From sequence record PZ534511.1: 64,000 nucleotides of DNA; one strand, written 5' to 3'. This stretch comes from a phage. The stretch's first letter is position 1. Each line of letters starts with the position of its first letter. The notes below the pieces were generated by a model, which worked only from the letters and a program-made list of their open reading frames with translations, made no database searches and was not told the origin of the DNA. Position numbers and translations under genes: made by a program. This document shows, piece by piece, positions 3,001-64,000 of the stretch.

Positions 3001-4948
3001 CACCCTTGCCATTAGGATTGAACTCCCACAAGGCTTGTGTTTTCACAATATTGTCATACGTGGCGCGTCTTTGATCGTAGATCTCTTGGGTCACATCATA
3101 AGTGACTGATCCAGCATCCATTCTGTGGAGTCTGACCATATACGATGTATCCCCTTCTACTGCAGGCTGGGTCCCATTCAGCCCAAAGTATACAGTATCA
3201 TTAACATGGAACTGTTTGTTTCTACCGACAGTATGCCATTTACCATCAGACGGGTACGCAGGAACTATGGTGTTCCAGTTCAAAGTCCTTGTCGTATGGG
3301 TTCTGCCTGTGCCATGCTTGTCATGATAGGTTATTTTTACAGAGTACAGGCCACGTCTGTTAACATTTCTGTTATACTGGGTGACAACAACTTCATTGGC
3401 CCCTCCGTGGTTCCAGTTGGTGGAGAATTGGTAATTTGCATCTGTAACAACCGTGCCTGCAGCATTTACCAGTTCAATCTTGTCAATAATGAACGTAGCC
3501 CCCTCTGGCTGAGGCTTCAATTTCATCTTGACCGTGTCACCAATGTAAATATTGCTAACGCTGCTAACACCGTTAACGTCGAAAATATCCTCAACACCCC
3601 AACTGTCTACCGGGACATTTTTATACCAATTCTCCGGAATCTCTGTGAACCCTTGGCTGTTAAGTCTGCCGCCAAAGAGGTTATTAGATCCTGTAAAACT
3701 TCCCCTTGGGATACCTGACCACCAAAGTTTACCATTAACAACAGTAAAGGTACCTAAGAAACCTTCTCTGTGGATGCCTTGGAAATAAACACTCTCTGTC
3801 CAGCTGACTGGCAGGCGTTGCTCAACATATTTAGCTGTAGCAAGAGCTTGATAGTGGATAAAATCGGCCCTAGGACTATTGTTTGCAGATTGTGCACCAA
3901 TATCATTACATAAGTTGCGAGAGAACCCACGATACTGCTTAGTGCCATTATTGAAGAAAATGCCACTTGTGCCGTACCCACGAGCCATCATTACCTCATG
4001 GGTGTAGGTGATATTCAGTTCCCGCCATGTATCATCTCCCCAAATGTTTTGACCATAAAATACGTTAACAAGCTGCTGGTCATCGGGTCTATGCATCCTC
4101 TGTGTAGCAATTACTGCCCCGTTAGGACCACACATAAACCCTTTCCACTCCTCATCTGCAGGAATGCCCCTCAAATCGTTACGAGTAATCTGCACAGGAG
4201 GCCAAACAAGGTCGTTTCTACTGTTATTTCTCAGAAAGTCGTAACCTGCAATCCAGAATCCGTTAGGACCACCAAAAATAACCGAGTTGTCATGAACTTC
4301 ACAATTAATTCTTGGATTTTTCCAAGGACCTGTCTCTGGACTTTCAGATGTTTCACCGATCTTAACTGGAGTAGCGTGTTGACTTTTGTCAACATGAAGA
4401 GAGCCGTAAGTATTATTGCCAGAGCCGTACAGGTGAAGCATACCATCAGCCTCTGGTGCAGCAATTACCCACACGGTATTGTTTACGCCACCCATTACTT
4501 CAACAAGTCTCTCAGGATGGGTGTCCAAATGCAACCCTGTTACGATCTGTTCCGGCAAAGGTGTCCACTCTCTGACACAAACATCGTTTCCACCTGCTGC
4601 CTCCGATCCGATAAGACCAGCTGTGCAACCAATATAGAAAAATTTATTATCGAATGTGCGGATTACAAATGCACGGTCAGCTCTCCAAACATGGTCTACG
4701 TTCCAAGCTGCCTCATTAGGATAGTTTATTGTATCAAGATCTCCAGTCCGACACTCTCCGAACCTATTATAGCCAGTAATATTAAGCTGACCATCATCAA
4801 AAAGTATAGCTAAGCTATTTACATAGGATACTGTGTTGCTTGTACCATCACTGTTGTCTATTGGGTATGACAGAACAGCAAGTTCCTTAATTCCACCCCT
4901 CTTATCGAGGAAATGACGACCAAGTTTTAGCAAAGGGATTGGAAGCAT
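1..4948 (-). CDS. giant tail fiber/tailspike-like structural protein, N-terminal >=1649 codons (stop lies beyond window start)
   Basis: Minus-strand frame open from ATG (plus 4946-4948, GGAG RBS at 4955-4958) to position 1; manual translation begins MLPIPLLKLGRHFLDKRGGIKELAVLSYP; absent from ORF track, which appears to list only ORFs with an in-window stop; plus-strand ORFs 1010-4813 are Cys/Ile-rich antisense shadows. Confidence 0.6.
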   Translation of the reverse strand, partial: MLPIPLLKLGRHFLDKRGGIKELAVLSYPIDNSDGTSNTVSYVNSLAILFDDGQLNITGYNRFGECRTGDLDTINYPNEAAWNVDHVWRADRAFVIRTFDNKFFYIGCTAGLIGSEAAGGNDVCVREWTPLPEQIVTGLHLDTHPERLVEVMGGVNNTVWVIAAPEADGMLHLYGSGNNTYGSLHVDKSQHATPVKIGETSESPETGPWKNPRINCEVHDNSVIFGGPNGFWIAGYDFLRNNSRNDLVWPPVQITRNDLRGIPADEEWKGFMCGPNGAVIATQRMHRPDDQQLVNVFYGQNIWGDDTWRELNITYTHEVMMARGYGTSGIFFNNGTKQYRGFSRNLCNDIGAQSANNSPRADFIHYQALATAKYVEQRLPVSWTESVYFQGIHREGFLGTFTVVNGKLWWSGIPRGSFTGSNNLFGGRLNSQGFTEIPENWYKNVPVDSWGVEDIFDVNGVSSVSNIYIGDTVKMKLKPQPEGATFIIDKIELVNAAGTVVTDANYQFSTNWNHGGANEVVVTQYNRNVNRRGLYSVKITYHDKHGTGRTHTTRTLNWNTIVPAYPSDGKWHTVGRNKQFHVNDTVYFGLNGTQPAVEGDTSYMVRLHRMDAGSVTYDVTQEIYDQRRATYDNIVKTQALWEFNPNGKGGKMLQVNEQNGTSLTVHEHPDPWPDPGKPHPGARTLKIVSHDAGYFGIRWEATVRYVDGTTNNIGITLGGTSEDNSLKIAYTPRGISIDNMDVVRNGYGDVNVKVTLGEHLGGERIIMYAFDHDPRTNGTYANQAWSYLINAPEPNTKEFYYGMKRDVCKKTGTHDWIAICVKDERTAWDEPVNRWFIGIPTRSDKYVAEYIVCMGGTNLNMCWNEDVNKYSDYDYMRDYSCNLWFNQTTGYPPRQARVNPAIFTDTQVFLTKQANEVQTFKNKYDPNKWFYNCYGAFFWGPGELPGGGSCFEAATYASDRFMGQVKKYKIIPGPETLGNAVDPYIIMSDLRSNMDGTSISMQVPVTNGYKRVVMIIKCDLIGKQVLAENGTSTHLFETALHYQFADSPFAGDKRISDTDAVRCKKFMLGGGWWWYEFDLTDKFTDTSKVVTGLRLDLGENMHKSVCDGTYGDPTIYLKYVSFEHPEDVVYGPKLRLFGNWIAKDRVGMGKKVRGFLIDAGTEDMLVNAVWPELPGTQWNNSAKSINWFNIHRAMWTTNCYLWKELNDGAFGFTGGRRMAIICWTTLQRCYDHDYEIGGRAWKNIRDRIITNFADPNGGGAYGFDCSRLIHLNGSSAYKKEGYSGSMIEWGLVKDARVLMGQQLAAAIGPNAVQSVKPAWFDIPLWSSGTPGTAAINPTTGDLEISWEDLKQVGGWDKTGYQVQWWRADGSLAADEFVKDNFYTMSSAKAQELFGQATPSTITMSMCCKDNRTGALGPRVAKVFSGIKWNLPVQSISWKQIGDNKLLVTPACQFNATLNVDPAVAANSAKASDFSVSNTAMADVRKIDTLNARITCKNTYGTFQIINNFTDADSKVVRTASQTLSLGTLAYAALITEQSATLQGGGVGKSIATPVWKPNEWVVFDLTVDFSSDNNWTWVRNCLSQLMGGPSSVSDSHDSTDPSVFQVGKTHPETGETLPDRKYALVCISYGKADVTFSGTHTYNGTYNFS

Positions 4949-4957
4949 TGTGTTCTC

Positions 4958-4989
4958 CAGATAAGAAAACCGCCCCGTCAGGAGCGGTT
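4958..4989 (-). terminator. rho-independent terminator after 4999..6744 gene
   Basis: Inverted repeat aaccgc/gcggtt (4968-4973 / 4984-4989) with 10-nt loop, followed on the minus-strand RNA by GUUUUCUUAU. Confidence 0.5.
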
Positions 4990-4998
4990 AGATATATA

Positions 4999-6744
4999 TT
5001 AACGTTGTGCAATTACTACGTCTACGATATCACCAACACCACAATATGTTAATTGCAGCAAGGTAACACTATTAGCCTTGTTATTAATAACAGGCGTTGC
5101 CGACAGGATAGCATACTTATCGTGCAAAGTCACGTTGTGACCTACAGCATCCTGAATGACATAGATAACCGCAGTGAATGGATAAGGTTTATCTTCCGCT
5201 GATGTACCAGGCCATTGTCCTATTGTAAAATCCCCTTTCGCGTGGACAACATACATACTGGCCTGCCCGTTAGGTGTCCATGTCCCACTGGACGCGTCAA
5301 CCTCCTCTAAATCAAAATCTACCTTTCCTGCGTGGAAAGTAGGGGCAGTAATGGTTTTACCCGCCTCAATTTCTTGAGAGGTGGTTATCTTGCCACTGGA
5401 GTTAATGCCATTACAAACAAAGTTGACATTAGAGAAGTCTGGCAGCCACCCAGTCACTGTGCCGGATATTTCAAGGTTGTGAAGGTAGGTGGTGCCCGTC
5501 CCTGCTGCGTTTAAACTAACATCTCCATTTACCTGCAAGTTTCTGGTAACGTTGCAGTTTTCAGAGTTTGCAGTTGTTGCAGTTAAAGTAGTGGTTGTCA
5601 GCTCGGTAATTACACCTTTGTTGGCTGTAAGCCCTTCCCCTTCAAAAGTTGCACGCTCATTGACTCTTAGGGTATTCAGAGCTATGTTTTGGATAGAGGC
5701 TGTACCTCGAATAACTACAGATCCGCCAACTTCTAAATCACCATTTATTAATGCGTCCCCCGTGCTTTCAATATAGCTAGGGTAAATCATGGTGCCATCG
5801 ACAGAGTAGGTTATCCCTGTAACAGTGCCTGTCACCTCAAGGTTCTTAACCCTGGTGGTTCCATCTACCTGCAATGTCGGTTCGGTTGCTGCCTTCATGG
5901 CATTACCACGAATGTACACGTAGTCAAAAAAGTTATTACCTAGACCATCAAAATGCACATCGTTATTATTAGCCACTGGTTTCCCAGAAGTTATAGTGTC
6001 AGCTATAACCCTGTGGGTGGACACTTCATGAGGTTGCAGCTCTGTGCTTCTCCAGTCTGCATGCTTAGGATCACTCCACGCAAAAGTAAGTGTAGAAGTA
6101 TTTGCCGTGAGGATTAGGTTCCTGAAGCGTGCAGTAGAATCTGCTCCATTAACAGGCCCATGTAAGGTGAGTGTGCCACCAACTATAGTGTTAGCAAGTT
6201 CTGTAAGACCTTTTACCACCAAAGATCCTACAGTAACTTTCATTCCCTCCATGGCTTCAAATATGCTATCCACATAGTCAACAACAAACTCTGTGTTTGC
6301 TATAGACTCGGATTTGTCGTCCATTGGAGGCGTAGGTACTCGCGGGTCACCTTCGAACCTCGGACTGTTAAGTTTTGCGTAGTATTTTGCCATTACTGCA
6401 GAATCGGTATATAATCTCCAGTTTGGAGATTGTGAAGGATCTGCTGGCATTCTAACCGGGTTAGATTTTGATGCTGCGGGAGCGTACCACCACTGAGGGC
6501 CTGTGTCCCCTTTAAACTCGTACAGCTGGTTAAAAACTGTTGTGGATGCACCATACGCCCAAGGGATCGGTGGCGTTTTAAAATAAAGGGTGTCAAGCAT
6601 GGCTTTTCGTACCGTAGGGATGGTGGTCCCATCCTCTACGACAACTTCATCCACAGCGTTACCGTTGACAATCAGGTGCAAACGTTCAGAATCAACAATT
6701 ACTTGATCTACCGCCTGCTCAAAGCTTGTCATGTCTTGCGCCAT
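4999..6744 (-). CDS. tail fiber/tailspike protein (581 aa)
   Basis: ORF track; Thr/Gly/Asn-rich beta-structure-like repeats (TGTVTGITYSVDG, LEISGTVTGW); position in fiber gene cluster. Confidence 0.5.
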   Translation of the reverse strand: MAQDMTSFEQAVDQVIVDSERLHLIVNGNAVDEVVVEDGTTIPTVRKAMLDTLYFKTPPIPWAYGASTTVFNQLYEFKGDTGPQWWYAPAASKSNPVRMPADPSQSPNWRLYTDSAVMAKYYAKLNSPRFEGDPRVPTPPMDDKSESIANTEFVVDYVDSIFEAMEGMKVTVGSLVVKGLTELANTIVGGTLTLHGPVNGADSTARFRNLILTANTSTLTFAWSDPKHADWRSTELQPHEVSTHRVIADTITSGKPVANNNDVHFDGLGNNFFDYVYIRGNAMKAATEPTLQVDGTTRVKNLEVTGTVTGITYSVDGTMIYPSYIESTGDALINGDLEVGGSVVIRGTASIQNIALNTLRVNERATFEGEGLTANKGVITELTTTTLTATTANSENCNVTRNLQVNGDVSLNAAGTGTTYLHNLEISGTVTGWLPDFSNVNFVCNGINSSGKITTSQEIEAGKTITAPTFHAGKVDFDLEEVDASSGTWTPNGQASMYVVHAKGDFTIGQWPGTSAEDKPYPFTAVIYVIQDAVGHNVTLHDKYAILSATPVINNKANSVTLLQLTYCGVGDIVDVVIAQR

Positions 6745-61097: not shown

Positions 61098-61429
61098 TGA
61101 CTAAAAATTCTGTAGATAGTGCAATTATGGAAGCTGTTTTTGAGGATGATCATACAACAGGGACACTTAAAACAAAAAATACATTCGTTGTTGCCACAGG
61201 TATGTGGCGGTTGTATGAAGATGACACCATTTCATACATCCTGTACACTGATGATTACGCAGATGACCGTGTATGGTCTGCTGTTTTAAAAGAGGATTGT
61301 GAACTGATTGAGGGCGAGCGGTTATGCATGTTCACCAGTGTGGAAACAGATGTTAAGCTTTGCTCTCTCGTCTTGTTCAAAGATAAGGCTTATGCTCCTG
61401 ATGAAGGAGAGGAGGATGAGGGAGTATGA
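61094..61429 (+). CDS. small highly acidic protein (111 aa)
   Basis: ATGA overlap with upstream gene; Asp/Glu-rich (YEDDTISYILYTDDYADD, PDEGEEDEG). Confidence 0.4.
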   Translation: MMTKNSVDSAIMEAVFEDDHTTGTLKTKNTFVVATGMWRLYEDDTISYILYTDDYADDRVWSAVLKEDCELIEGERLCMFTSVETDVKLCSLVLFKDKAYAPDEGEEDEGV

Positions 61430-62055
61430 GAGAGCGTCTATTATCCATAGACCAGTCGTTGACACACACAGCTTGCGTTGTATGGGACGATGGAAAGCCT
61501 GTTCATAAGGTTGTGTTACGAACTCAAAGCTCATCTGCAAAAGAGAAGAAACCAGGGACGGTTTCTTTTGCAACAGCTGCTGAGCGTATTGACTGGATCT
61601 GCAAACAGGTCAGATATTATATCCACACGCACGGAGTTGACACCGTGGTTATGGAAGGGCTTTCCTTTGGATCACGCGGGGATGCCACACGTGAACTGGC
61701 CGGGTTGTTTTACGGTCTTGAAATTATGCTTTGGGATGCCTTAGCTGATTGTGCAAATGACGGCCTGTTTAAGGTCCACACAGTGACACCAACAACCGCC
61801 AAAAAGTTTGCTCGCAGTCATCTTCCTGAAGAACTTGCTTTTGAGGAGAAGAAAAAGCTTGACAAAAAGACAGGTAAAGAGCATACTGTGAAGAAACCTG
61901 TTACAATGGATAAAAAGTTGATGGTTAAGGCCTGCGAAGTATCTGAACCTGGGTTCCTAGACGGAATCAATTTGGTACAAGGTAAGGCCGATCTCGCAGA
62001 TGCTTATTGGATAGGCAGGGCTCATCTGGAGGGATTATCGCAAAGCGTAAAATAA
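61426..62055 (+). CDS. RuvC-like Holliday junction resolvase
   Basis: RuvC-type acidic motifs in order: SIDQSL (first Asp), VVMEGLSFG (Glu), KADLADAYWIGRAHL (paired Asp + His) compared to E. coli RuvC GIDPG / AIEQVF / ADAADALAIAITH. Confidence 0.55.
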   Translation: MRERLLSIDQSLTHTACVVWDDGKPVHKVVLRTQSSSAKEKKPGTVSFATAAERIDWICKQVRYYIHTHGVDTVVMEGLSFGSRGDATRELAGLFYGLEIMLWDALADCANDGLFKVHTVTPTTAKKFARSHLPEELAFEEKKKLDKKTGKEHTVKKPVTMDKKLMVKACEVSEPGFLDGINLVQGKADLADAYWIGRAHLEGLSQSVK

Positions 62056-62612
62056 GAAAGAAAGCTGTCAAAGCCCCAGTTCATAACGGGTGGTTAAAAG
62101 ATTCTAAGGACATAGCCAACTTTCGAAAAGAATTGTCAGAGGAGCAGGATGGTCTTGATCCGATCTTGTGCGAGCCACTTCGTAAGCCTTGTTTAGATCA
62201 TGATCATCTGACTGGTCGTTGCAGGGGTGTTTTGTCTCAATGCACTAATACCTTTGAGGGGTATGTGCTTAAATACTGGATGAAATACTGTAACGAGTAT
62301 ACAGATTGCAGTTTATCAGAGGCGTTGCGCCGGATGGCTGACTATTTGGAGAAAGACTACAGCGACTTCCCGCTCCACAAAAACTACAGAGATGATATGA
62401 CAAAGTTCTTGAGGAGATGCTCTAAAGCTACGATTATTGCACGAGCAGAATCAGATCTCAATCTTGTCATTAATCCGGAGTGCACCAAGCATGAGGCTAT
62501 TGAGTTCTACATGCAGGAGTTTATAAAGAAAACTGAGGAGAGAGATTTCTATGGGGATGAAAAAGGTATTCAATCCTTGCGACTCAGTCCTGATCAGGAT
62601 GAAATACCGTAA
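62007..62612 (+). CDS. endonuclease VII-like (T4 gp49 family) nuclease; start codon uncertain
   Basis: CLDHDHLTGRCRGVLSQCTN matches endo VII zinc/HNH-like core; no in-frame ATG upstream of domain; track start is TTG overlapping RuvC-like ORF by 49 nt. Confidence 0.55.
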   Translation: MDRQGSSGGIIAKRKIRKKAVKAPVHNGWLKDSKDIANFRKELSEEQDGLDPILCEPLRKPCLDHDHLTGRCRGVLSQCTNTFEGYVLKYWMKYCNEYTDCSLSEALRRMADYLEKDYSDFPLHKNYRDDMTKFLRRCSKATIIARAESDLNLVINPECTKHEAIEFYMQEFIKKTEERDFYGDEKGIQSLRLSPDQDEIP

Positions 62613-62772
62613 CTGGAAAGGTGTTGTTGCAGATCGCTGCGTTACTGAGCCTAATTTATGGTTTGGCTCTACAGAGTATCATAAAGAAGAGCAGTGGTTG
62701 ATGCGTGCCTTCGATGTAGACAAGGGCGAATATCGTGACTTCGCTTTAAAAGACATTCTTCAGTTTTACTAA
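62551..62772 (+). CDS. hypothetical protein (73 aa)
   Basis: ATG with GAGGAGAGAG RBS; overlaps 3' end of endo VII-like ORF. Confidence 0.35.
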   Translation: MGMKKVFNPCDSVLIRMKYRNWKGVVADRCVTEPNLWFGSTEYHKEEQWLMRAFDVDKGEYRDFALKDILQFY

Positions 62773-62784
62773 GGAATCTTAACG

Positions 62785-63768
62785 ATGATGACAAAGTTAA
62801 CTCTTGAGCAAATTTTAACACTAAAGCAACAGGGATACACTAATAGACAAATTGCTCGTGAATTTTTAGGCCGTGAGTCACGTGAGAGCTGGATCCGACT
62901 ACAGCTTAAACGTGCACAAGAGAATATGTCAGAGATTGTAGGAGAAGCAACGGAGCGCTTCCTTGAAGAGCACAAAGGTGCTAAAGTTTGGGTGTATGAT
63001 ACAGAGACATCCCCAACAAACGGCTGGTTCTTTGGGCACTATAAGACCAACATTCAAACCTGTGGTATTGAAGTTATGCCCTATATGCTAACTTTCGCAG
63101 GTAAGTGGTTAGACAGTCCTAGTGTGGTTGACTGTGCTCTTCCTGATTATAAAATGTGGGGCGAAGATATTCACAATGATCTCGAATTGATTCAGGATTT
63201 GTGGTATTATCTGGATAAATGTGATGTCGCAGTAGCCCACAATTCAGGTTTTGACTGTGGGTGGGCCAACCAACGATTTGCATTTCACGGGTTGCCGCCA
63301 ACAAGCCCATACAAAGAGGTTGACACCCTCAAAATGATCAAGAAGGCATTCCGTTTGAATGCAAACACTTTGGAGTATGCATGCAAATACTTCCAACTTG
63401 CCCGGCAGAAACTGATTGACCACACATTTGAAATGTGGATCAAGTGTGTTCACGGTGATCTTGAGGCATTTAAACAGATGCGGGAGTACAATGTTGGCGA
63501 TATCCTATCTCTGGAAGGCCTGTATTTGCTGGCACGCCCGTTTGCTAAGCAGCACCCCAACATGTCGTTGTACTACCAGGACGAGGAGCCAAAAGTTCGT
63601 TGCCCACGCTGTGGTGGAGAACACCTTCACGAGGAAGAAGCTTTGGCGTATACTCAATTGAGCGCATTTAAAACATACCGCTGCGAAGGTTGTGGATCTG
63701 TTGTTCGTGATCGTAACAACATCCGTACCAGAGAAGAAATGAAAAACACCCTGATTCAGATAATCTAA
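62785..63768 (+). CDS. DEDD-family 3'-5' exonuclease with N-terminal HTH-like segment and C-terminal Cys4 zinc ribbon
   Basis: Exo motifs VYDTETS (Exo I), HNSGFD (Exo II), YNVGD (Exo III); CPRCGG...CEGCG at C-terminus. Confidence 0.65.
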   Translation: MMTKLTLEQILTLKQQGYTNRQIAREFLGRESRESWIRLQLKRAQENMSEIVGEATERFLEEHKGAKVWVYDTETSPTNGWFFGHYKTNIQTCGIEVMPYMLTFAGKWLDSPSVVDCALPDYKMWGEDIHNDLELIQDLWYYLDKCDVAVAHNSGFDCGWANQRFAFHGLPPTSPYKEVDTLKMIKKAFRLNANTLEYACKYFQLARQKLIDHTFEMWIKCVHGDLEAFKQMREYNVGDILSLEGLYLLARPFAKQHPNMSLYYQDEEPKVRCPRCGGEHLHEEEALAYTQLSAFKTYRCEGCGSVVRDRNNIRTREEMKNTLIQII

Positions 63769-63775
63769 CAATTAT

Positions 63776-63803
63776 AGGGAGGCTTGCGCCTCCCTTTTCC
63801 TTT
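63776..63803 (+). terminator. rho-independent terminator after exonuclease gene
   Basis: gggaggc-ttgc-gcctccc hairpin followed by ttttccttttgg. Confidence 0.65.
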
Positions 63804-63813
63804 TGGAGGTACT

Positions 63814-64000
63814 TTGAGCAAGAAAGAGTCCAACGACAAATATTACACAAACCCTGAGTATGCAGAATATCTTGTTGGTAAAGTAAAAGATAAGTATGGG
63901 AATTGTGCATACGTTGAGCCTTCTGCTGGAAGGGGTTCTTTTTCAAAACTATTTTCAGAGATACTGTCGTACGATTTAGTACCAGATCCTGAATTTGAAG
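63814..64000 (+). CDS. N6-adenine DNA methyltransferase, N-terminal fragment (runs off window end)
   Basis: TTG start after GGAGG RBS; YYTNPEYAEYLV and AdoMet-binding motif I-like VEPSAGRGSF; not in ORF track because no in-window stop. Confidence 0.5.
   Translation, partial: MSKKESNDKYYTNPEYAEYLVGKVKDKYGNCAYVEPSAGRGSFSKLFSEILSYDLVPDPEFE

Follow-up and report, generated by a model that had tools for sequence, protein, structure and literature searches.

An exonuclease gene and an adjoining predicted adenine methyltransferase gene, a candidate source of GTAC methylation, in Vequintavirus DNA

The window is a stretch of 64,000 nucleotides of phage DNA (PZ534511.1), and the present analysis is concerned with its last part, where a complete exonuclease gene is followed by the beginning of a methyltransferase gene. 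The features of both genes are as follows.

62785..63768, + strand: exonuclease gene from the ORF list, 327 aa, complete, with an HTH-like part, a DEDDy 3'-5' exonuclease core and a zinc ribbon
62803..62925, + strand: N-terminal helical bundle, HTH-like, residues 7-47, core GYTNRQIAREF (AlphaFold2)
62980..63549, + strand: DEDDy exonuclease core, residues 66-255 (motifs, Foldseek, Pfam matches of homologs)
62998-63009, + strand: Exo I, D72-T-E74-T (DxE motif)
63238-63255, + strand: Exo II, H-N153-SGF-D157 (NxxxD motif)
63487-63501, + strand: Exo III, Y235-NVG-D239 (YxxxD motif)
63592..63720, + strand: C-terminal beta ribbon with a putative Cys4 zinc site (sequence, AlphaFold2 strands)
63601-63612, + strand: C273PRC276, a CxxC read in the sequence
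63682-63693, + strand: C300EGC303, a CxxC read in the sequence
63776..63803, + strand: terminator-like hairpin AGGGAGGC-TTGC-GCCTCCCT with a T-rich tail, between both genes (terminator scan)
63805..63816, + strand: GGAGG ribosome-binding site (63805-63809) and TTG start (from 63814), read in the sequence
63814..64000, + strand: first 62 codons of the methyltransferase gene, TTG start, cut by the window end (translation)
63835-63855, + strand: motif X-like stretch DKYYTNP (translation)
63913-63942, + strand: motif I, VEPSAGRGSF (translation)

It was found that 121 Vequintavirus records match the window over 2.6 kb at 98-99% nucleotide identity, and on this match the window is assigned to Vequintavirus, the rV5-like E. 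coli coliphages, which are myoviruses. Several of the matching GenBank records annotate a 'DnaQ-like 3'-5' exonuclease' and then a 'putative N6 adenine methyltransferase'. The orthologues of the exonuclease and the methyltransferase are bas53_0194 and bas53_0193 in phage JohannBauhin (Bas53, MZ501083), and bas51_0201 and bas51_0200 in phage WalterGehring (Bas51, MZ501111). In these two genomes and in the rV5 record DQ832317 both genes occur in the order seen in the window, with essentially no difference except that the window end truncates the methyltransferase. The terminator scan puts the hairpin and its T-run at 63776-63795, the 51-nt intergenic stretch folds as RNA at -19.1 kcal/mol (z = -3.4), and a 'terminator' is among the features of MT682716 that lie under the 2.6-kb match. 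The neighbours of the exonuclease gene are a FEN-like 5' exonuclease, a RuvC-like resolvase and endonuclease VII, and the nucleotide-salvage genes for thymidylate synthase and ribonucleotide reductases are encoded near it. The best explanation of the locus as a whole, to which we give a joint probability of roughly 0.7, is that two adjoining genes with a terminator-like hairpin between them stand within the Vequintavirus block for DNA replication, recombination and nucleotide metabolism, the first coding for a DEDDy exonuclease of recombination or repair and the second for an orphan adenine methyltransferase of GTAC. Both genes are ordinary and already known and annotated, and they do not make up a new kind of system.

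An AAGGAA ribosome-binding site precedes the ATGATG of the exonuclease ORF by 8 nt. The encoded protein is identical to bas51_0201 at 326 of 327 residues and matches the PHROG family phrog_403 over its full length (E 1.8e-110). The original prediction of the three Exo motifs of a DEDD exonuclease is borne out, as all three are present and conserved in 57 homologs: D72, E74, D157, Y235 and D239 are invariant and N153 is kept in 56. Such conservation is far beyond chance. The AlphaFold2 model has a mean pLDDT of 79.6, and over core residues 71-250 the block means are mostly 80-97, the lowest being 70. The top Foldseek matches in the PDB (E ~1e-4) are the exonuclease domains of family-B polymerases, DnaQ domains, the DinG exonuclease domain and RNase T. 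The modelled protein has an RNase H-like DEDD fold. At the level of sequence families, the window protein itself reached no Pfam gathering threshold and gave no PF13482 match at E <= 0.1; PF13482 is matched by 51 of the 57 homologs and PF10108 by 47, and when a profile was built from the rV5-like exonuclease proteins it found members of PF13482 with E values of 1e-67 to 1e-78. Because Exo III reads Y235-NVG-D239, with both residues invariant, the exonuclease is placed in the DEDDy subgroup. The earlier label 'DEDD' was thus right as to the superfamily and needs sharpening to DEDDy (PolB-exo/YprB type), not the DEDDh type of DnaQ/epsilon.

The core is flanked by two accessory modules, both of which had been claimed before. 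The N-terminal HTH-like stretch is modelled by AlphaFold2 as three helices (residues 7-15, 20-28 and 34-47) with block-mean pLDDT of 79-91 over residues 1-40, and its Pfam HTH matches remain below threshold (HTH_38, E 0.034; HTH_7, E 0.094). MerR is matched by 7/57 homologs and HTH_11 likewise by 7/57. The C-terminal CxxC...CxxC ribbon is present with CPRC and CEGC on modelled strands; the ribbon strands (281-289, 294-300 and 306-310) belong to a moderately confident part of the AlphaFold2 model (block-mean pLDDT 56-76, residues 271-327), and the zinc-ribbon Pfam matches are below threshold (E 0.002-0.005). A complete set of four cysteines occurs in 8-9 of the 57 homologs, all in the rV5-like clade, and across the family at large just C273 and C300 stay conserved, their partner positions being Ser or Thr. 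A reading of the ribbon as a Lar-type restriction-alleviation domain was rejected, its match being just E 0.004 and below threshold. The HTH-like bundle and the putative Cys4 ribbon would most likely bind nucleic acid or a partner.

Among known proteins, the stand-alone 3'-5' exonucleases of PF13482 (RNase_H_2, YprB-like) and PF10108 (DNA_pol_B_exo2) share the RNase H-like fold and the DEDDy residues, and the best structural match is with family-B DNA polymerases, at their exonuclease domain. The window protein differs from the PF13482 and PF10108 enzymes in its added N-terminal HTH-like bundle and in the full Cys4 ribbon, which is found in the rV5 clade only, and it is without the TPR domain of YprB. 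E. coli DnaQ, the DEDDh proofreader known as Pol III epsilon, is of the same superfamily and its structure (PDB 1j53) aligns weakly with the Exo II region (E 0.012), whereas Exo III of the window protein is YxxxD and not HxxxxD. The protein is predicted to be a Mg2+-dependent 3'-5' DNA exonuclease of the DEDDy class (PolB-exonuclease/YprB type), and its fold and gene context suggest that it could be trimming 3' ends in phage recombination, repair or DNA processing.

The phrog_403 label 'DNA polymerase exonuclease subunit' implies a different function, namely that of a proofreading subunit acting in trans on the phage DNA polymerase as DnaQ/epsilon does with Pol III. The exonuclease indeed aligns to the exonuclease region of the DNA-polymerase family phrog_17 (E 9.6e-10), and weak matches to the Exo II region of DnaQ epsilon were seen in NCBIfam and among PDB sequences. 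Yet such a role is unlikely, as the epsilon equivalog models give 26.6 bits (NF004316, cut-off 196) and 23 bits (TIGR01406, cut-off 222.7), and Exo III has the DEDDy tyrosine in place of the histidine of epsilon. Also against it, the phage polymerase, which is of family A, has T7-like N-terminal exonuclease motifs of its own and its gene lies ~50 kb from the exonuclease gene in the genome. The evidence for a putative exonuclease region in this polymerase is limited to motifs (it begins MSMWSFDFES and contains HNCYSYD), to PHROG profile coordinates (polymerase and exonuclease align to the same phrog_17 stretch, positions 670-843) and to a pairwise BLAST alignment of polymerase residues 96-189 with the Exo II region of an approximate T7 gp5 sequence (E 4e-6). 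When the exonuclease family profile was compared with the phage polymerase by hhalign no significant match was obtained, and phmmer gave no match of the polymerase N-terminus to PDB sequences. Distant homologs of the exonuclease further argue against proofreading: they lie on small marine phage contigs (~37 kb), three genes downstream of a faint Rad52-family match, and within the ~12-15 kb examined per contig no gene was called as a polymerase. To judge from its modelled fold and its gene context, this nuclease probably serves recombination or repair and not polymerase proofreading. Since it is a DEDDy nuclease of the PolB-exo/YprB type with additional modules, and the polymerase has exonuclease motifs of its own, the common label 'DNA polymerase exonuclease subunit' is probably misleading.

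It could also be imagined that the combination of HTH, exonuclease and ribbon makes a targeted anti-host nuclease and not a housekeeping nuclease of recombination; its purpose would be, for instance, to break down host DNA so that the nucleotides can be salvaged, or to destroy the nucleic acid of a defence system. For this speak the added HTH and zinc-ribbon modules, which are suggestive of targeting, the nearby salvage genes, and a weak PADLOC match to a CRISPR-associated DEDDh model, which shows only that such domains serve defence contexts. This idea is nevertheless quite improbable: nucleases of recombination and repair are encoded right beside the gene, and the family is kept in phages of unrelated types, where it is found in replication and recombination modules.

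The methyltransferase gene begins with a TTG codon, and the same start is annotated in GenBank MZ501083. A GTAC site is present at 63809-63812, between the ribosome-binding site and this start. Because GTAC upstream of the start codons of homologs is not enriched (11 loci against 9.7 expected), its occurrence here is probably due to chance. The 62 residues encoded in the window are all identical to those of bas51_0200 and of protein P0010, and they match phrog_5172 (E 4.9e-24). The methyltransferase motif I claimed for the truncated ORF was found as VEPSAGRGSF, an AdoMet-binding ExxxGxGxF motif, with E35, P36, A38, G39, G41 and F43 invariant in 61 homologs. On extension motif IV is found as well: the Bas53 and Bas51 orthologues, whose first 62 aa equal those of the window, read FIGNPPFG, and the GNPPFG motif, which lies beyond the window end, is invariant in the 61 homologs. 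In the full-length orthologues of 272 aa the order is thus motif X (YYT, residues 10-12), I (34-43) and IV (84-89), followed by a C-terminal beta-rich domain of 150 aa.

The class of the enzyme had to be read from PADLOC, fold and motifs because curated family libraries gave no threshold match. No Pfam or NCBIfam model reached threshold, the best in Pfam being Eco57I (E 0.013) and MTS (E 0.046), and searches against NCBIfam and PDB sequences gave no matches. The PADLOC MTase_II model PDLC03255 covers residues 8-253 of 272 of the full-length orthologue (E 2.4e-34). Its AlphaFold2 model (pLDDT 93.1) has M.TaqI, HsdM, M.BseCI and CamA among its structural neighbours in the PDB, and the top single Foldseek match is the tRNA methyltransferase TrmN. 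The Rossmann domain of M.TaqI (PDB 2ADM/1G38), the archetypal gamma-class enzyme, is superimposable (Foldseek E ~3e-7, 19-21% identity) and M.TaqI has the same motif order X-I-IV with an NPP(Y/F) catalytic loop; it differs in length (421 aa against 272) and in its C-terminal target-recognition part, which is unmatched, M.TaqI recognising TCGA. Thus the original prediction of an N6-adenine methyltransferase agrees with the motif order, the PADLOC MTase_II match and the M.TaqI-like fold of the full-length orthologue.

The family of ~260-aa proteins to which the enzyme belongs is without a Pfam model and has at least 794 cluster representatives. In bacteria, a ~200-aa gene is directly beside the methyltransferase homolog in 16 of 80 loci, in 15 of them downstream, and each of the three neighbours tested gave a match to a model of Type II restriction enzymes (E down to 8e-11). 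Genomes of Sphingomonadales and Rhodobacterales are among those with such restriction-modification pairs. The phage gene has no adjacent restriction gene, and it is regarded as an orphan because the downstream gene (152 aa, phrog_9938, function unknown) is unlike the bacterial restriction-enzyme-like neighbours. The truncated ORF is, on sequence and modelled fold, assigned as the start of a 272-aa orphan gamma-class Type II N6-adenine DNA methyltransferase.

NPPF and NPPY motifs are also found in RNA and protein methyltransferases, and the enzyme might act on an adenine or guanine of rRNA or tRNA instead of DNA. Several homologs are labelled 'predicted RNA methylase' by JGI, 7 of the 61 homologs weakly match Pfam RrnaAD (rRNA adenine dimethylase), and PH1948-like RNA methyltransferases stand with TrmN among the structural neighbours. 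An RNA target is highly improbable all the same. The full-length match is to a PADLOC model of Type II restriction-modification methyltransferases, the bacterial homologs are directly beside a Type II restriction-enzyme-like gene in the 16 loci, the fold matches are dominated by M.TaqI, M.BseCI, CamA and HsdM, and a DNA m6A motif without an assigned enzyme exists in the virion.

This last point leads to the question of the target of the DNA methyltransferase. It has been demonstrated by nanopore sequencing that virion DNA of Bas51 carries m6A at essentially every GATC and GTAC (PMC12548924), so that the m6A looked for in virion DNA is present in this near-identical phage (S4 Table). In the Bas51 genome GATC occurs 703 times (1406 adenines) and GTAC 258 times (516 adenines). 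In the wild type 1405 methylated adenines were counted at GATC and 509 at GTAC, and in the T83P methyltransferase mutant 35 at GATC and 511 at GTAC; the methylome also has 349 'other' methylated sites (PMC12548924, S4 Table). Three adenine methyltransferases are predicted for the phage, and an experimental assignment exists for the 177-aa GATC gene only. The mutated residues D69, D79 and T83 fit this gene, bas51_0176, and the 272-aa methyltransferase was ruled out as the mutated gene, having Q69, A79 and I83 at these positions. The GATC enzyme is also a small orphan NPPY/F methyltransferase of the same phage, and both proteins share phrog_799 similarity in the catalytic half; it lies ~16 kb away, differs in length and target, and its loss leaves GTAC methylation intact.

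The candidates left for GTAC are the 272-aa bas51_0200 and the 441-aa bas51_0070, whose motif IV catalytic loop reads DPPF and which matches a Type III Mod model (E 7e-205). Since GATC belongs to bas51_0176 and GTAC methylation outlasts its loss, by elimination the 272-aa methyltransferase would probably be making the GTAC mark, and it is the most parsimonious source of GTm6AC in Bas51. With the target adenine flipped into its NPPF pocket, the enzyme would methylate it from S-adenosylmethionine so that both strands carry GTm6AC, which would explain the near-complete GTAC methylation of Bas51 virions. M.HpyAXII and M.PabI (GTm6AC) are gamma-class enzymes like the 272-aa methyltransferase and have the same product as that proposed here (PMC2588503, PMC10273834). 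In motif IV the catalytic Asn stands at nearly the same place, N87 in M.HpyAXII against N85 here. M.CviQI is a further enzyme known to make GTm6AC. These enzymes are longer (331 aa against 272) and their partners are DNA glycosylase restriction enzymes of the PabI type, whereas the bacterial relatives of the 272-aa family adjoin the different, ~200-aa protein resembling Type II restriction enzymes. M.HpyAXII is known as a solitary methyltransferase with conserved activity (PMC2588503, PMC10273834), and in the work on H. pylori GTm6AC was shown to block digestion by RsaI. M.RsaI was considered as an analogue and rejected, as it makes m4C and not m6A (PMC6256690). A structure search of the BFVD viral library for known GTAC enzymes gave uncharacterised relatives only, and nothing relevant was found in the literature on RsaI/KpnI resistance of rV5-like DNA or on Sphingomonas GTAC methylomes.

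There is, however, a second way to divide the marks between the two remaining genes. Bas51_0070 stays a candidate for GTAC because some beta-class Mod-like enzymes recognise palindromes, and the 272-aa protein, while being an adenine DNA methyltransferase, could then make some of the 'other' sites or be weakly active. Two genes remain for one palindromic motif and 349 other sites; the target-recognition part of the 272-aa model has no informative structural neighbour; and bacterial loci with the homologous restriction-modification pair show no specific depletion of GTAC, its observed/expected ratio being 0.84 both with and without the restriction gene. Type III Mod enzymes generally act on a single strand of short asymmetric sites. 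The ~349 remaining non-palindromic sites suit such an enzyme better than does a palindrome of 4 bp with ~99% methylation of both strands. Small monomeric gamma Type II enzymes, on the other hand, typically handle short palindromes, and the gamma class also includes M.HpyAXII, which is known to make GTm6AC and whose catalytic Asn has a similar position (PMC2588503). This division of the marks is therefore possible but doubtful, and the 272-aa enzyme is kept as the probable source of GTAC methylation.

It had been suggested that a phage-encoded methyltransferase serves self-protection against host restriction, and GTm6AC may mask GTAC, and longer sites containing GTAC, from restriction enzymes that are sensitive to m6A. 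To our knowledge, none of the restriction systems tested in the BASEL study targets GTAC. Against these systems the Vequintavirinae were 'exceptionally susceptible', apparently without effective protection (PMC8594841), and the suggested self-protection is not established. Protection, if real, would be narrow. Phage methyltransferases can mask restriction sites, and they can also trigger retron defence (PMC12548924); bas51_0176 itself, the 177-aa GATC N6-adenine methyltransferase, triggers the retrons Asa1 and Squ1 (PMC12548924). As phage methyltransferases can do both, it matters for the engineering and therapeutic use of Vequintavirus which enzyme makes which mark.

The value of the present assignment is mostly that of correct bookkeeping, as both genes already carry annotation in a part of the near-identical rV5-like genomes, of which there are more than 100. 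The Bas51 methylome nonetheless holds an unexplained and essentially complete GTm6AC signal which outlasts the loss of the GATC methyltransferase. We consider the chances slightly better than even that a compact gamma Type II enzyme of the ~260-aa family methylates every GTAC of Vequintavirus virions and that the phage has three active adenine methyltransferases. If this is true, the ~260-aa methyltransferase family would gain its first specificity, and phages described as 'restriction-sensitive' would be running three active adenine methyltransferases, namely the GATC enzyme, the Mod-like enzyme and the GTAC enzyme.

The exonuclease and methyltransferase genes occupy the last 1.2 kb of the window. 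When checked in the sequence, the original prediction had placed and described them accurately. The stretch holds two ORFs separated by a hairpin:

62785-63768, plus strand: complete exonuclease ORF of 327 aa (ORF list)
63776-63795: strong hairpin with a T-run between both ORFs (terminator scan and RNA fold)
63814 onwards: second ORF with a TTG start and a GGAGG ribosome-binding site ahead of it, cut by the window end after codon 62

Near-identical genomes already carry annotations for both genes. The 2.6 kb around them shows 98-99% identity to 121 phage records, all of which are rV5-like Vequintavirus genomes, and the inspected BASEL-collection records label the pair 'DnaQ-like 3'-5' exonuclease' and 'putative N6 adenine methyltransferase'. 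Other records call the first gene 'DNA polymerase exonuclease subunit' or 'putative exodeoxyribonuclease' and the second 'SAM-dependent methyltransferase', 'RNA methylase' or 'hypothetical protein'. One GenBank record names 'DNA-binding transcriptional regulator YobV' as a product under the 2.6-kb match. Across the region, about 20 unannotated MG0656xx records ('Campylobacter phage', host C. jejuni) show 97-99% identity to rV5-like phages of E. coli, and their host label looks doubtful.

The surroundings form a block of DNA-transaction genes, with a DNA ligase, a FEN-like 5' exonuclease (phrog_107), a RuvC-like resolvase, an endonuclease VII and a 73-aa ORF upstream and a P-loop NTPase, thymidylate synthase and ribonucleotide reductases downstream. 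The RuvC-like gene (61426-62055; phrog_159, E 5.5e-39) adjoins the endonuclease VII gene (62007-62612; PF02945, phrog_423) with a 49-nt overlap; two different junction-resolving nucleases in one module represent an unusual duplication of function. The 73-aa ORF (62551-62772), which overlaps the endonuclease VII gene at the latter's 3' end, matches phrog_3715 strongly, a family with no assigned function, and WYL/WYL_2 (Sm-like SH3 barrel) weakly (E 0.02-0.03). Of the two relatives used for comparison, Bas51 (phage WalterGehring, MZ501111) is about 5 kb longer than Bas53 (MZ501083), which is explained at least in part by several homing-endonuclease insertions that split essential genes in Bas51; in its annotation the DNA polymerase, the large terminase subunit and the class III ribonucleotide reductase are each assembled from two parts.

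Motifs, folds and family matches bear out the gene calls themselves, an exonuclease and then an adenine methyltransferase. The exonuclease matches phrog_403 end to end (E 1.8e-110), and the 327-aa protein alone gave no threshold-level match in Pfam or NCBIfam. Direct homology search with it returned only 9 relatives; a profile built from these reached 442 proteins, mostly with PF13482 (RNase_H_2, 'YprB-like'). When 57 aligned homologs were scanned one by one against Pfam, PF13482 was found in 51, RNase_T in 50 and PF10108, described as a 'predicted 3'-5' exonuclease related to the exonuclease domain of PolB', in 47. All 57 share D72, E74, D157, Y235 and D239 without exception and 56 have N153, a pattern that places the enzyme among the DEDDy exonucleases (PolB-exo/YprB type) and not with DEDDh enzymes like DnaQ/epsilon, a sharper class than the annotated label. 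Its AlphaFold2 model (mean pLDDT 79.6; core block means mostly 80-97) consists of an N-terminal helical bundle (7-15, 20-28, 34-47, 49-62), a core (68-253) and a C-terminal three-stranded ribbon (281-310). Against the PDB, the model is closest to the exonuclease domains of family-B polymerases from archaea and eukaryotes; DnaQ domains, the exonuclease domain of DinG and RNase T come next. The claimed CxxC...CxxC arrangement is real in the sequence; all four cysteines are confined to the rV5-like clade, and elsewhere among the 57 homologs only one Cys per knuckle is kept. The HTH-like stretch is plausible but weak: GYTNRQIAREF and three modelled helices speak for it and a few homologs have MerR or HTH_11 matches, but the HTH matches of the protein itself lie below threshold.

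Support for the label 'DNA polymerase exonuclease subunit' is poor, because the phage polymerase has exonuclease motifs of its own. This family-A enzyme (925 aa in Bas53) begins MSMWSFDFES and contains HNCYSYD, and both it and the stand-alone exonuclease align to positions 670-843 of the phrog_17 polymerase profile. A further lead, not a database result, is the alignment of polymerase residues 96-189 with the Exo II region of T7 gp5 (E 4e-6). Together, these three lines suggest a proofreading domain within the polymerase itself. Distant members of the exonuclease family occur in marine phage contigs of about 37 kb, among genes with a faint Rad52-family match and YopX, DnaA C-terminal-domain and DUF3127 matches, and no polymerase was called in the ~12-15 kb read per contig. 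Given this context and the neighbouring resolvases and 5' exonuclease, the protein is most economically read as a nuclease that would process 3' ends in recombination, repair or DNA maturation, in which the HTH and the ribbon could be DNA-handling or partner-handling modules.

For the methyltransferase (METHYLTRANSFERASE), the 62 in-window codons are identical to the N-terminus of 272-aa proteins of Bas53, Bas51 and the cluster representative P0010. In the full-length protein the motifs follow the gamma-class order, with a motif X-like DKYYT, then VEPSAGRGSF as motif I and FIGNPPFG as motif IV, and their residues are invariant in 61 homologs; extension thus supplied the DPPY-like motif IV and left the original claim standing. 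The family, which numbers 794 cluster representatives in one search, is not covered by any Pfam or NCBIfam model, and the PADLOC MTase_II model PDLC03255 matches nearly full length (E 2.4e-34). Neighbours of the AlphaFold2 model (pLDDT 93.1) in the PDB are mainly gamma-class adenine DNA methyltransferases (M.TaqI, M.BseCI, CamA, a Type I HsdM subunit), and RNA methyltransferases including TrmN and PH1948 are also among them. An RNA target is argued against by gene pairs within the family that resemble true Type II restriction-modification systems. In 16 of 80 surveyed bacterial and archaeal loci encoding relatives, a conserved gene of ~200 aa directly adjoins the methyltransferase (downstream in 15), and all three examples tested match the PADLOC REase_II model PDLC03460 (E down to 8e-11). 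These neighbours (loci L008, L014, L031 and 13 others; ~4760-5450 in most) share an N-terminal HGxxFE, an SIK motif and a C-terminal RRLQCS; they have no Pfam match, and the PADLOC Type II restriction-enzyme match is weak. They are probably the uncharacterised cognate restriction enzymes of this methyltransferase family. No such partner lies beside the gene in the phage, which makes the enzyme an orphan; on motifs and model it is best classed as a gamma-class Type II orphan. Just past the window end, bas53_0192 (152 aa, L001:9196-9654; phrog_9938, no assigned function, no Pfam match) shares 38 nt with the methyltransferase gene at the latter's 3' end. A homolog of it (~30% identity, E 1.5e-10) adjoins a 54%-identical methyltransferase in locus L007, so this pairing may be conserved.

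Native Bas51 DNA was sequenced by nanopore in a 2025 PLoS Biology retron paper (PMC12548924), which quantified GTAC methylation without discussing it in the main text.

Methylated adenines in Bas51 DNA (PMC12548924, S4 Table)
Wild type: GATC 1405; GTAC 509; other 576
T83P methyltransferase mutant: GATC 35; GTAC 511; other 349

The Bas51 genome contains 703 GATC sites (1406 adenines) and 258 GTAC sites (516 adenines), therefore both are ~99-100% methylated on both strands, and the m6A expected in virion DNA is present. The GATC enzyme is a different gene: the mutated residues D69, D79 and T83 fit the 177-aa bas51_0176 exactly, with T83 directly before NPPY (84-87), and the 272-aa protein, with Q69, A79 and I83, is ruled out. 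E. coli K-12 is not known to possess an adenine methyltransferase for GTAC, which means that the GTAC mark must come from the phage. Two candidates remain, the 272-aa methyltransferase and a 441-aa beta-class adenine methyltransferase outside the window:

L003:13734-15059: bas53_0069, in Bas53
L092:14456-15781: bas51_0070, in Bas51

The latter (PF01555, E 1.5e-42) matches Type III Mod models (E 7e-205), and no Res partner is annotated among the neighbours of either copy. Enzymes of the Type III Mod kind usually modify a single strand at short asymmetric sites, which would fit the ~349 residual 'other' adenines of the GATC mutant, of which bas51_0070 may be the source, better than a 4-bp palindrome carrying the mark on both strands. 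M.HpyAXII, a characterised GTm6AC enzyme, is gamma-class like the phage methyltransferase, with its catalytic Asn at position 87 as against 85 (PMC2588503). On these grounds we assign GTAC methylation to the 272-aa methyltransferase gene with a probability of about 60%. Two indirect checks speak neither for nor against this assignment: GTAC observed/expected is 0.84 in bacterial loci with the restriction gene as well as in those lacking it, and GTAC sites ahead of homologous genes are about as frequent as chance predicts.

The suggested self-protection is plausible but narrow. GTm6AC blocks RsaI (PMC2588503) and PabI-family enzymes (PMC10273834), and m6A-sensitive enzymes with GTAC-containing sites, such as KpnI at GGTACC (20 sites in Bas51), should also be affected. 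GTAC is strongly under-represented in the window (117 sites against 241 expected from base composition) and is the second most depleted 4-bp palindrome of the Bas53 genome (Markov observed/expected 0.59; CTAG 0.51), which is compatible with past selection by GTAC-cutting enzymes; despite this depletion, the sites still present are fully methylated in Bas51. However, Vequintavirinae were exceptionally susceptible to the restriction systems tested in the BASEL study (PMC8594841), which argues against a broad protective role. Phage methyltransferases also carry a cost, since the sister GATC enzyme triggers two retrons (PMC12548924). A GTAC lies at 63809-63812, exactly between the GGAGG and the TTG start, and could point to autoregulation of the enzyme through the mark it makes; it is probably there by chance, because among 80 homologous genes 11 have a GTAC upstream where 9.7 would be expected, which is no enrichment.

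The analysis corrects the 'polymerase subunit' label on the exonuclease gene, and offers for the published, unexplained GTAC methylation a testable assignment to the 272-aa methyltransferase gene.
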